Below are positions 8,807-23,228 of a stretch of 64,000 bases of DNA, piece by piece. Below the pieces are notes generated by a model. The model was not told the DNA's origin, did not search any database, and saw nothing but the letters and a program-made list of their open reading frames with translations. The stretch's first letter is position 1. Each line of letters opens with the position of its first letter. Made by a program: the position numbers and the translations under genes. The DNA comes from a virus (lineage: Duplodnaviria; Caudoviricetes), in the IMG/VR virus record IMGVR_UViG_3300038393_000457, positions 19,809 to 83,808 of that record; one strand, given 5' to 3'.

Positions 8807-9370
8807 ATGAGATATTATGCAGGGATAGGCTCCCGAAAAACACCAAAAGATGTTCTGTTCATCATGGAACGGATTGGTCAGAGTCTCGCCTCCAGATTTG
8901 TTCTTCGATCTGGTGGTGCCGGAGGTGCTGATACCTCCTTTGAAAGAGGGGCCAATCGAGGTCAAGGTGTCACAGAAATCTTCCTTCCATGGAAAGGTTT
9001 CAATGCGGATGACGAGGACCGTGAGTTTCTTCCGGTATCTGATTTGTTTCTTGACAATCTGCCTCAGAAAATACAATATGAGGCTGCTGAGATTGCAAAG
9101 CAGTTTCATCGCCATTGGAATGAATTGACTATCGGAGGAAAAAAGCTTCATACCAGAAATGTTTTACAAATTCTTGGTCGTGATCTAAATACCCCAAGTG
9201 AATTTGTTATCTGTTGGACAAAAGATGGTAAAGCAACCGGCGGAACCGGTCAGGCAATGCGTATTGCGAAATCTAAGGGAATTCCAATCTATAATCTAAA
9301 GAATAACGATGACAGGGATTCTTTGGTGAAGTGGTGGAATATGGAATATGGGTCTGATCCCATCGTCTGA
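8807..9370 (+). CDS. SLOG-superfamily protein (DprA/Smf-like Rossmann fold, phage type)
   Basis: YAGIGSRKTP, LRSGGAGGAD, GGTGQA motifs. Confidence 0.72.
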   Translation: MRYYAGIGSRKTPKDVLFIMERIGQSLASRFVLRSGGAGGADTSFERGANRGQGVTEIFLPWKGFNADDEDREFLPVSDLFLDNLPQKIQYEAAEIAKQFHRHWNELTIGGKKLHTRNVLQILGRDLNTPSEFVICWTKDGKATGGTGQAMRIAKSKGIPIYNLKNNDDRDSLVKWWNMEYGSDPIV

Positions 9371-9575
9371 TCTTGAAACTACTCGTTGGCCAGAAGATCA
9401 TCCAAATCTTCGTCCTGGCGGTCAACATGTCGGTAGTGGCCCTTTCGGAATCAAGGTAAAACACATTCCTTCTGGAATTGAAGCATGTGTGGATATTGGG
9501 TCTTCACAACATCGCAATAGACAGATTGCCATAGAGATGATAGAAGCAGCATTAACAAGTGAGTGGTACAGATGA
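9348..9575 (+). CDS. Minimal class I release-factor / peptidyl-tRNA hydrolase domain protein with GGQ motif
   Basis: IPSSDL...PGGQHV...VKHIPSGI...SQHRNRQIA aligns with RF-1 domain consensus PGGQHVN...HLPTGI...SQHKN. Confidence 0.75.
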   Translation: MGLIPSSDLETTRWPEDHPNLRPGGQHVGSGPFGIKVKHIPSGIEACVDIGSSQHRNRQIAIEMIEAALTSEWYR

Positions 9576-10583: not shown

Positions 10584-10868
10584 ATGGATGAAGATAAGAA
10601 ACAAGATATCTTAAATCTCCTCAAGACCGGAGAGGTCAAGGTAGTTTTTAAGAAGGTTGATGGTGGTGAACGTGTAATGCGATGCACTCATGCATTGCAC
10701 CTAATTCCGGTACGAGAGGAATCTTTCCAAGATAAGGAAAGAACAGAAAGAAAGAAGAATCCGGATGTTTGTCCGGTATTCGATCTTGACAAGAATGCTT
10801 GGCGCTCTTTTCGTTGGGACTCACTTACTCGGGTTTCTGTAGAAATCCAAATGGATAAAGTAGCATGA
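10584..10868 (+). CDS. SH3/Sm-like WYL_2 (DUF2693-like) protein common in T4-like phages
   Basis: V-F-KVDG-ER-M-CT...VFDLDKNAWRSFR pattern. Confidence 0.65.
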   Translation: MDEDKKQDILNLLKTGEVKVVFKKVDGGERVMRCTHALHLIPVREESFQDKERTERKKNPDVCPVFDLDKNAWRSFRWDSLTRVSVEIQMDKVA

Positions 10869-11047
10869 ATGCTTTCATTCTGGCAATTGCCATTCTTACA
10901 GCTTCCCATGTGATTGTATATCCTGACAAGCCTGAATATCCAACTATTGAGGCTTGTCAGCAGGAGCAACTTACCTTGATTGACAAAAATCGTGACCTGT
11001 ATTATGAAGGTCGCTTGATTTTGGTGTGTCAACCTAAGTAAAATTCT

Positions 11048-11267
11048 GGTGGATGGCACCGGCGCGCGGCGGGGACTAAGGTATGAATTGGTAACATCTT
11101 ACATGGAATAAATTTGCTTCTATGGTGTAACGGCAGCACGGTGTCCTTATAAGACATAAGCGGTAGATGACCGCGCGGAACAGGTTCGAATCCTGTTAGA
11201 AGTACCAATCCTGGAGATCGGCTAGATTAGCTGGAACGGCACGGTTCGAAACCGTGATCCACTACCA
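11048..11267 (+). ncRNA. Interrupted type II tRNA-like element whose anticodon loop contains a complete tRNA-Ile
   Basis: GGTGGAT (11048) pairs with ATCCACT-ACCA (11257-11267); T arm CACGG-TTCGAAA-CCGTG; V arm CGGCTA-GAT-TAGCTG; GGGA-CT ... AA-TCCT anticodon-stem halves flank a 130-nt insert. Confidence 0.55.
11116..11207 (+). tRNA. tRNA-Ile(UAU) with long variable arm
   Basis: GCTTCTA/TAGAAGT-ACCA; GTGTC-CTTATAA-GACAT; V arm GCGGT-AGATG-ACCGC. Confidence 0.8.
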
Positions 11268-11281
11268 AAATTGAGGATACA

Positions 11282-11566
11282 ATGAATATATATTTGGTTT
11301 GGGGTAGATATTGCGTTCAATATGAAGGATGTGAGGAATGGTTTGTCTGCGCCTATTTCTCTGAGAAAGATGCTGAGAAGCATGTAGAATATGCAAATAA
11401 ATGGGTATCTGAACATATTGACTCTAGGGTAAAGGATTTCCCTAATCCTTATGATTCATATTGCACCGAATATTTTTGGCGTAGTGAGACCGAGTATCAT
11501 TACAGCCCCATCCTCATAAAAAATTATTTTAAACCAATGTTGGAGCTTGACATTGAGTGTATCTAA
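11282..11566 (+). CDS. Hypothetical protein
   Basis: 94-aa ORF with GAGG RBS. Confidence 0.6.
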   Translation: MNIYLVWGRYCVQYEGCEEWFVCAYFSEKDAEKHVEYANKWVSEHIDSRVKDFPNPYDSYCTEYFWRSETEYHYSPILIKNYFKPMLELDIECI

Positions 11567-15645: not shown

Positions 15646-15695
15646 GCTCGCTCGCCGTAAGGTGTGCAACTGATCGAAAGATCAAGCGAGCACCA
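15646..15695 (+). ncRNA. 50-nt CCA-terminated mini tRNA-like RNA
   Basis: GCTCGCT/AGCGAGC-ACCA acceptor stem closing two GNRA hairpins (CGCC-GTAA-GGTG, TGATC-GAAA-GATCA). Confidence 0.65.
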
Positions 15696-15731
15696 ATTAT
15701 AATGTCCCTATAGTGAAACTGAATAGTCAAT

Positions 15732-15809
15732 GGTGCTGTATCCCTCGACGCTACGAACGTCGTGAAAGGTAATTGGATCATGCAGGTTCGACCCCTGTCA
15801 GCATCTCCA
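15732..15809 (+). tRNA. tRNA-Arg(ACG)-like RNA lacking a D arm at the normal position
   Basis: GGTGCTG/CAGCATC-TCCA; CGACG-CTACGAA-CGTCG starts 7 nt after the acceptor; T arm GCAGG-TTCGACC-CCTGT. Confidence 0.7.
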
Positions 15810-16386
15810 TTATTCTATTAGGTTCTCCATATAGAAGCTTAATAGATTTTTTTACTTGATCTAATTTCTCCTGTTGTTTGATGACAACGATTGGATTCTT
15901 TGGATCAAGAAATATGTTAAGATTAGGAAGATAGAAATCTGGAAAGTATTTGTGTTCTTTCCCATTTTTATCGATCCAAGGAATTGATGTTTTTGGTTGT
16001 TCCCAAATAATATTGGCTTCATCAAGTAATTGGGCCATTTTTACTTCCCAACCAGAATCAAAGATAAAGTTTTTGTAAATTTGACGTTTTATACCGGAAG
16101 CATTCTTTCTTTTGACCGCGATGAAACATTGGTCAGAACAAGTTGTTCCAATTTTCTTTTGTGACGCAAAATATTTTTGGCATACAGAACATTGTCGAAA
16201 ATATACCTTGGAATTGGGTCCACAAACATGTCTCTTGCTGAAGAAGCCTCTTTTACCAATTGTTGTTGATTTTATCCTTGTATAATTACGACCGCGTTTA
16301 AGGTTATTGTATGTTGCGGAACAAGATGAACCACAGAATTTTCTTTTTAATGGTATAAGTAAGTTGCAATTTAAACAATTATGCAT
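15778..16386 (-). CDS. Free-standing homing endonuclease-like protein (Zn-finger repeats + PD-(D/E)XK/TnsA-like domain)
   Basis: CLNC..KFCGSSC and CSVC..CSDQC; FDSGWEVKMAQLLD...YFPDFYLP...LDPK; AT-rich; 3' end overlaps the tRNA-like T arm. Confidence 0.75.
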   Translation of the reverse strand: MHNCLNCNLLIPLKRKFCGSSCSATYNNLKRGRNYTRIKSTTIGKRGFFSKRHVCGPNSKVYFRQCSVCQKYFASQKKIGTTCSDQCFIAVKRKNASGIKRQIYKNFIFDSGWEVKMAQLLDEANIIWEQPKTSIPWIDKNGKEHKYFPDFYLPNLNIFLDPKNPIVVIKQQEKLDQVKKSIKLLYGEPNRIMEMLTGVEPA

Positions 16387-16481
16387 TATAAATCTCCTTC
16401 TAAATGCTAATTGTATTTAGTAAAATTTCGACTCAAGATGTGGGTTCGAGTCCTGCTAGGGACGCCATTTAAGAGGTTGTT

Positions 16482-18634: not shown

Positions 18635-19045
18635 GAACGTCGGTCAGATATGGCCGATTGGATCGCTCAGGTGGTCCTAGGTTCTTGGACAAGTTTTGCG
18701 GTAGCTTACGGATGTTTGTCTAGGTCGAAAGACTAAATTTCGGAGTGTGAAGGAAGCACGGTGGTCTTTTAGACGACCAGAATCGGATCGTTACCGGTCG
18801 AAATTTTCCGCAACTAAATAGACAACCGTAGTGTGAAGAACACGTAAATCGGATGAATTTTTGGCATTGAGTGTTTGGGAAAGTATGATATCTGACTGCA
18901 CTGGTTGATGCATTCCAGACGGTCTAACTCAACTATCACCGTTGGTTATCATGGTACATGGTGGAAATGGTATACACGCACGTTTTGAAGACGGGCGCTC
19001 GAAAGAGATTGCAGGTTCGAATCCTGTTGTACACTGTGACGATCC
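18610..19045 (+). ncRNA. Large structured ncRNA candidate with an embedded tRNA-like domain
   Basis: Stems 18631-18638/18681-18688; 10-bp long-range stem 18785-18794/19036-19045 encloses the tRNA-Leu-like module. Confidence 0.5.
18952..19035 (+). pseudogene. tRNA-Leu-like module (UGA at anticodon position), incomplete acceptor, no CCA
   Basis: TGGTGGAAATGGTATACAC D arm typical of Leu; CTC-GAAA-GAG V arm; GCAGG-TTCGAAT-CCTGT; only 5 acceptor pairs. Confidence 0.55.
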
Positions 19046-20553: not shown

Positions 20554-20626
20554 GCCTAGTGGTCTCGGGTACCAATCTGGTCTCATAAGCTGGATGTGAT
20601 TGGTTCAAATCCAATACGAGGCACCA
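20554..20626 (+). tRNA. tRNA with CAU anticodon (Met or Ile2), reduced D arm
   Basis: GCCTAGT/ACGAGGC-ACCA; loop CTCATAA; ATTGG-TTCAAAT-CCAAT. Confidence 0.7.
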
Positions 20627-20723
20627 AAATTGCGGAAAGACTACCATGGATGTCGTCACAGGGACCGTGACCTTGCGCGTTGAGGATAGACTGTTGACCC
20701 GCAATAGTATTTGTGTATAATTT

Positions 20724-23152: not shown

Positions 23153-23228
23153 GGTTCCGAAGAGCAAAGGATAGAGCCTCTTCCCTGTCTAGGAAGAGTA
23201 GGGGGTTTGAGTCCCCCCGGAATCGCCA
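23153..23228 (+). tRNA. tRNA-Asp(GUC)
   Basis: GGTTCCG/CGGAATC-GCCA; CTTCC-CTGTCTA-GGAAG; T loop TTTGAGT; weak D stem. Confidence 0.8.

Follow-up and report, generated by a model that had tools for sequence, protein, structure and literature searches.

A phage tRNA-Ile(UAU) gene nested within the apparent remnant of a diverged paralogue

Introduction

Insertions are known to leave fragments of tRNA genes beside intact copies (PMC9897764). The fragments left by the insertion or integration of foreign DNA retain the T arm, the 3′ strand of the acceptor stem and the CCA, have no working 5′ half and adjoin an intact tRNA gene (Williams 2002; van der Gulik et al. 2023, PMC9897764). In archaea, the split and intron-containing tRNA genes of Nanoarchaeum equitans and Caldivirga have two halves that lie apart and can be paired via the acceptor stem, together with a bulge-helix-bulge motif, a splicing endonuclease, a ligase and a complete anticodon loop (PMC3218864, PMC4090602).

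In this work, we describe a locus in the tRNA array of a phage, positions 11048–11267 of the analysed sequence, in which a complete tRNA-Ile(UAU) gene lies between the two ends of another tRNA-like element. Like the insertion-derived fragments, the outer element adjoins an intact tRNA gene and presents a T arm, an acceptor 3′ strand and a CCA, whereas its 5′ half is not a working one. It differs from them in that both broken ends are kept and flank the intact gene, the insert is only about 150 nt long, no integrase is encoded in the available fragment, and the remnant appears to be a diverged paralogue rather than a copy of the 3′ end of its neighbour. As in the archaeal genes, two halves lie apart and can pair via the acceptor stem; however, no bulge-helix-bulge, splicing endonuclease, ligase or complete anticodon loop was seen, and the setting is a bacterial-type phage with an encoded CCA. 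The locus belongs to the known class of tRNA gene remnants, and what is new is the nested variant; a literature search turned up no description, in phages, of one tRNA lying within the remnant of another.

The phage record and its tRNA array

The analysed stretch of 64,000 nucleotides, hereafter the window, corresponds to bases 19809–83808 of an 83.8-kb IMG/VR phage record with a CheckV completeness of 47%. The phage has a GC content of 41%, and the record encodes a primase, a ribonucleotide reductase, NAD-salvage enzymes and HNH endonucleases. ARAGORN called 27 tRNA genes in the window, all co-oriented, and Rfam added one above threshold and one weak candidate; the 83.8-kb contig has about 30 tRNA genes. 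Of the two genes uncalled by ARAGORN, at 23153–23225 and 20554–20627, one reaches 32.6 bits in Rfam, more than the gathering score requires; the second, a weak candidate of 20.9 bits that resembles tRNA-Met(CAU), has a reduced D arm and overlaps the stop codon of the ORF before it. In most tRNAs of the array (window 11000–35000), the leader is AU-rich with U at −1, the CCA is encoded and the trailer is A/U-rich. Enlarged variable regions are present in several class I isoacceptors, namely Gly(GCC), Trp, Lys(CUU), Thr(UGU) and Ala, and the loops of the long variable arms elsewhere in the array are mostly of the GAAA type.

Some further elements of the window are also recorded here. A mini tRNA-like RNA of 50 nt (15646–15695), called by neither ARAGORN nor Rfam, has a perfect 7-bp acceptor (GCTCGCT/AGCGAGC) followed by ACCA and two small hairpins, CGCC-GTAA-GGTG and TGATC-GAAA-GATCA. 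At 18785–19045, a 10-bp long-range helix (GGATCGTTAC / GTGACGATCC) surrounds about 240 nt ending in a tRNA-Ser(UGA)-like gene (18951–19036), for which no CCA is encoded. The only match of a 75-aa ORF at 9348–9575 is to the RF-1 (GGQ) domain, with a Pfam score of 28.8 bits, below the cut-off of 35.

Structure of the nested locus

The nested locus occupies a 240-nt gap between two ORFs, and all its features lie on the plus strand. The upstream 58-aa ORF (10865–11041) has no family, and its stop codon lies 6 nt ahead of the outer 5′ end; the downstream 94-aa ORF (11282–11566) has a GAGGA ribosome-binding site 6 nt past the outer CCA. The outer element begins with the acceptor 5′ strand GGTGGAT (11048–11054), behind an AT-rich leader with U at −1 of the type usual in the array. 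A GC-rich segment (11055–11077), in which the small hairpin CCG-GCGCG-CGG can be formed, stands at the site expected for the D arm and the 5′ strand of the anticodon stem, and is followed by an AT-rich linker of 38 nt (11078–11115), the leader of the inner tRNA.

The inner tRNA-Ile(UAU) (11116–11207) has 92 nt including an encoded CCA, and was identified by both ARAGORN, as a cloverleaf with a long variable arm (GCGG-TAGATGA-CCGC, 11160–11174), and Rfam (55.1 bits). Its anticodon loop, CTTATAA, carries the anticodon UAU, which reads the rare isoleucine codon AUA. The inner CCA directly abuts the 3′ part of the outer element, which opens with a junction (11208–11218) composed of the putative remnant of the anticodon-stem 3′ strand and the 5′ flank of the variable arm. 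The variable-arm hairpin CGGC-TAGATTA-GCTG (11219–11233), the T arm CACGG-TTCGAAA-CCGTG (11240–11256), with a stem of 5 bp and a loop of the TTCRANN form, and the acceptor 3′ strand ATCCACT (11257–11263) come next. The discriminator A and the CCA (ACCA, 11264–11267) close the element, and the trailer AAAUU after them is usual in the array.

The two acceptor strands (11048–11054 and 11257–11263) pair at seven of seven positions, with G1-U72 as a wobble pair. This helix was closed in both the minimum free energy and the centroid structures of RNAfold, with pair probabilities of 0.60–0.72. The sequence of the locus was identical, with zero changes, in independent JGI assemblies, where the downstream protein occurs on 13 contigs, and the nested layout is therefore not an assembly artefact. 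The initial annotation of this DNA had described a 7-bp acceptor with ACCA, a canonical outer T arm and an inner tRNA-Ile(UAU) whose CCA abuts the outer 3′ half, all of which were recovered here; its 6-bp variable arm also stands if the T-A and A-T pairs at the tip of the hairpin are counted.

The inner part of the outer element is of a different quality. The region corresponding to the D arm (11055–11071, GG-CACC-GGCGCGC-GGCG) has neither U8 nor A14 and at most three of four stem pairs, so that no canonical D arm could be recognized, and the segment 11055–11077 is not homologous to the D arms of the tRNA-Ile(UAU) family described below. The anticodon-stem halves that had been proposed for this element are reduced to GGGA/TCCT, that is, 4 bp including one G-U; 130 nt stand where the loop would be, the outer element has no anticodon, and the inner gene and its leader sit in the place of the UAU anticodon arm. 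No outer tRNA was called by ARAGORN with introns allowed. The same was true, at the default threshold, of 1000 spliced constructs, in which each 5′ end point from 11068 to 11117 was joined to each 3′ start point from 11196 to 11215. At relaxed thresholds, the acceptor/T-arm frame was accepted only with anticodons that were arbitrary, among them those for Pro, Arg and Ile(AAU). In an Infernal search with all Rfam models at E≤10, the inner tRNA was the sole match. Because it has no anticodon, no U8 or A14 and no call by ARAGORN or Infernal, the outer element, as judged from its sequence, is not a working tRNA.

Other candidate identities were also discarded. A tmRNA was rejected since ARAGORN with the -m option and Rfam found none and the outer pair 3-70 is U-A, not G3-U70. 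For a group I intron or another Rfam family in the anticodon loop there was no match at E≤10 in 10980–11330, the insert consisting of the tRNA and its 38-nt linker. An intrinsic terminator in the GC-rich part was discarded for the lack of a U run, and the promoter-like site at 11015–11044 is no more than shuffled sequences give. The 25 bases of the GC-rich island at 11046–11070 are identical to transporter-like bacterial coding sequences (L329, L331 and L332; peptide LVDGTGAR). A 22-mer of this 5′ part had matches in seven loci of bacteria, of which three or more are transporter-like coding sequences, and one match reached 25 nt; these matches probably reflect GC and codon bias and not homology.

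A family of tRNA-Ile(UAU) genes with a GAU-bearing variable arm

The inner gene belongs to a set of seven distinct long tRNA-Ile(UAU) genes. The other six, of 91–95 nt, are located on unrelated IMG/VR contigs: L114 (588–681, minus strand), L140 (705–797), L176 (7682–7776), L009 (1146–1236), L024 (4173–4264) and L076 (1750–1841). The sequence AGAT is present in the variable loop of six of the seven genes (five of six without that of the window), with the tips CAGATTA, TAGATGA or TAGATAA, and the variable stem covaries at all five pairs. With its UAU anticodon and the tip TAGATGA, the inner gene is a member. A literature search found no paper on this kind of phage tRNA-Ile(UAU).

The outer 3′ half shares the hairpin design of the family, with the tip TAGATTA, the spacing to the T arm, with the hairpin 5–6 nt ahead of the T stem, and also the A73-CCA end. 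Hairpins of at least 4 bp with the motif [CT]AGAT[TGA]A at the tip occur only three times on both strands of the window (128 kb), namely in the inner gene, in the outer element and in one unrelated palindrome. A covariance model of the 3′ halves of the family aligned 11212–11267 end to end, with the loop on the consensus, at 29.1 bits, a score that is not specific, since ordinary tRNAs score similarly with their anticodon arm placed in the slot of the variable arm. The 3′ part of the outer element has 59 nt, against 55–57 nt from position 39 in family members. The combination of G1-U72 with A73 was dropped as a mark of the isoleucine family, several other tRNAs of the array having both.

By these likenesses, the outer element is best read as the 3′ half and the 5′ acceptor strand of a second tRNA-Ile(UAU) gene with a GAU-bearing variable arm. 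It differs from the members of the family in having neither an anticodon arm nor a D arm, and is at best a remnant. Because its T stem and acceptor differ from those of the inner gene, it is a diverged paralogue and not a fresh duplicate. The same differences, together with the absence of a Phage_integrase match in the 83.8-kb fragment, led us to reject an att-type fragment from integrase-mediated integration. Being of the Ile(UAU) type, the outer element is not Ser/Sec-like, contrary to the initial annotation.

Relatives of the locus

No relatives of the locus were found in the phage collection at either near or distant sensitivity, save for a 91-nt match in a neighbouring gene. Exact motifs of the outer T arm and acceptor, and of the inner tRNA, retrieved nothing from IMG/VR, the JGI metagenomes or GTDB. 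Relatives of the flanking proteins presented only 33–61% identity and had no tRNA nearby or were not syntenic; the closest NadV relative (61% identity) had no tRNAs in the flanks fetched. The search for an intact tRNA with the outer acceptor pair gave at least 120 matches, and among the matches listed these were random non-tRNA sequences. An uninterrupted version of the outer gene, for which the initial annotation had asked, was not encountered in these searches. The 94-aa downstream protein had no homologue beyond identical copies, whose DNA is that of the window.

A second nested arrangement

The heptamer GTCCCTA at 15704 pairs exactly with the acceptor strand of an orphan 3′ end at 16440–16467 (GTGGG-TTCGAGT-CCTGC-TAGGGAC-GCCA, of which TAGGGAC-GCCA is 16457–16467). 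Between the two strands lie a tRNA-Arg(ACG)-like gene without a D arm (15732–15809) and an antisense 202-aa ORF (15778–16386), which has weak matches to PD-(D/E)XK endonucleases and to treble-clef zinc fingers, all below the Pfam cut-offs. Homing endonuclease genes of the T4 segB type sit inside phage tRNA clusters, and the arrangement at 15704–16467 resembles them in having an endonuclease-like ORF beside a tRNA-like gene in a broken tRNA. By this analogy, the ORF suggests a nuclease-driven turnover of tRNA genes. The nest at 11048–11267 differs from the segB type in that it contains no endonuclease gene and has no known cleavage site or donor.

Origin of the outer element

The nested locus is probably the scar of a gene replacement, the ends of which are processed as by-products. 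The site would once have held a tRNA-Ile(UAU) gene with a GAU-bearing arm and the AU-rich leader and trailer typical of the array. About 150 nt of foreign DNA would then have entered the middle of this gene, bringing in the GC-rich stretch, the leader of 38 nt and another tRNA-Ile(UAU) from this family, complete and diverged; the D arm and the anticodon of the resident gene would have been removed, its ends would have survived, and the inner gene would now supply the function. We infer the insertion from the arrangement of the locus, no relative with an uninterrupted outer gene having been found. An insertion that killed a tRNA had been one of the two origins offered by the initial annotation, and this part agrees with the missing anticodon, the unusable D arm and the two ends that match each other; the Ser/Sec type of the victim is the part that had to be given up.

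If general bacterial tRNA maturation applies, RNase P would free the inner cloverleaf from a long co-directional transcript at 11115/11116, and trimming of the 3′ side would proceed to the encoded CCA at 11207. The outer remnants could pair as an acceptor/T-arm minihelix with ACCA. Since an acceptor/T-arm stack with RCCA is the minimal substrate of RNase P, a second cut at 11047/11048 is possible. The remnants would be unable to decode and would represent processing by-products, which at most may mark the ends of the neighbouring mRNAs.

Comparable debris is present beside other phage tRNA genes. Among the matches listed in our control scan of IMG/VR (see below), at least six of the 20 orphan T arms with all five stem pairs repeat the 3′ end of the tRNA beside them, either exactly or in diverged form. 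In L140 the tRNA-Ile(UAU) gene of the family is followed by a remnant with 13 of 17 identical positions, and L145, L193, L134, L157 and L172 (IMG/VR) repeat their own T arm and acceptor 3′ strand within 23–37 nt (12–17 of 17 positions identical). Partial 3′ duplicates beside phage tRNA genes are therefore recurrent. A point against the scar is the uneven damage, in which a flawless acceptor, T arm, variable arm and CCA contrast with 23 unrecognizable nucleotides beside the intact 5′ strand. Simple neutral decay would not leave perfect helices beside 23 nt unlike any D arm, and the pattern suggests that either the middle was exchanged in a single step or selection has preserved the closing helix.

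The weight of this explanation depends on whether GGTGGAT is a true partner of the 3′ end. When the 74-nt 5′ flank was shuffled, a seven-of-seven partner for ATCCACT arose in 4.2% of cases, and 1.6% of the other 74-nt windows of the genome contain one. The control scan of IMG/VR was directed at pairs of T loops too close for two tRNAs and gave at least 118 loci. Among the matches listed, 52 have an uncalled T loop behind a called tRNA, and all five T-stem pairs are present in 20 of these; nine of the 52 have a seven-of-seven partner in the 160 nt upstream, as many as chance would give, and in none does an orphan T arm with CCA enclose its tRNA. Given these chance frequencies and the outcome of the scan, the acceptor pairing alone is suggestive and not decisive. 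It is possible, although we think it rather improbable, that nothing is nested here and that a tandem second tRNA-Ile(UAU) gene simply lost its 5′ part by deletion, GGTGGAT being a chance complement. The absence of a tRNA-like D arm from the 5′ part agrees with such a deletion, and so do L114 and L140, in which the family genes are followed by 3′ remnants (orphan T arms) with no seven-of-seven 5′ partner upstream. On the other hand, GGTGGAT stands right where the intergenic region begins, after a typical leader with U at −1, the outer ACCA is followed by the usual AAAUU trailer, and the only other true orphan 3′ end of the array (16440–16467) also has an exact upstream partner at 15704, all of which argue for a real partner. 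In addition, the 30 nt from this strand to the CT at 11076–11077 are close to the 33–35 nt of a 5′ half.

Alternatively, the outer element might have a function of its own. After excision of the inner tRNA, the segments 11048–11115 and 11208–11267 could stay annealed as a two-piece tRNA-like RNA, an acceptor/T-arm minihelix with ACCA and a GAU arm and without an anticodon. IleRS might bind or charge this RNA, or it might serve as a decoy for nucleases that target tRNAs, or give defined, protected ends to the flanking mRNAs. No damage is seen in the acceptor, T arm, variable arm or CCA, and the helix probability (0.6–0.7) is accompanied by a cofolding gain of about −11.7 kcal/mol relative to the monomers on their own. 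Moreover, the array has other non-canonical CCA-ended RNAs, such as the element at 15646–15695 and the D-armless Arg-like gene, and the outer ends fall 6 nt past a stop codon and 6 nt ahead of a ribosome-binding site. Against this stand the identity of all available copies, by which conservation can not be shown, the absence of enclosing orphan T arms from the control matches listed, a folding z-score of just −0.83 for the region and the lack of a dedicated enzyme in the 83.8-kb fragment, and we regard a functional two-piece RNA as unlikely. Its boldest form, in which the phage deliberately makes an anticodon-less mimic of isoleucine tRNA with a GAU pseudo-anticodon arm, bound or charged by the host IleRS or serving as a decoy for defence nucleases, with 15704–16467 as another instance, is a speculation to which we give little credence. 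Ligation of the halves into a decoding tRNA, one form of the programmed precursor of the initial annotation, is very improbable. Only the geometry speaks for it, in that RNase P and 3′ processing would leave a 3′-OH and a 5′-phosphate joinable by an ATP-dependent RNA ligase, but the joined loop would keep the 38-nt linker without an anticodon triplet in a 7-nt loop, on an anticodon stem of 4 bp with a G-U. By eye, the junctions 11077/11078 and 11207/11208 present no bulge-helix-bulge, only a 4×2 internal loop beside GGTA/TACC without staggered 3-nt bulges, and no group I intron or other Rfam family was found there. The record, where the initial annotation would have looked for a ligase, encodes no RNA_ligase, RtcB, Rnl1 or CCA-adding enzyme in its 83.8 kb, which is weak evidence at 47% completeness, and no conserved relative was found.

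Implications for phage tRNA arrays

Taken as the scar of a gene replacement, the locus offers a picture of tRNA gene turnover in the arrays of large phages, in which a new isoacceptor copy would lie inside the old one and the old ends would remain as a pairing frame. Two diverged copies of an undescribed family of tRNA-Ile(UAU) with a GAU-bearing arm would have met at one site in a phage. For annotation, the locus calls for caution, as remnants composed of acceptor, T arm and CCA can mimic nested or split tRNAs. If the remnants were stable or charged, the locus would provide the first case, among bacterial viruses, of a tRNA-like RNA made of two pieces.
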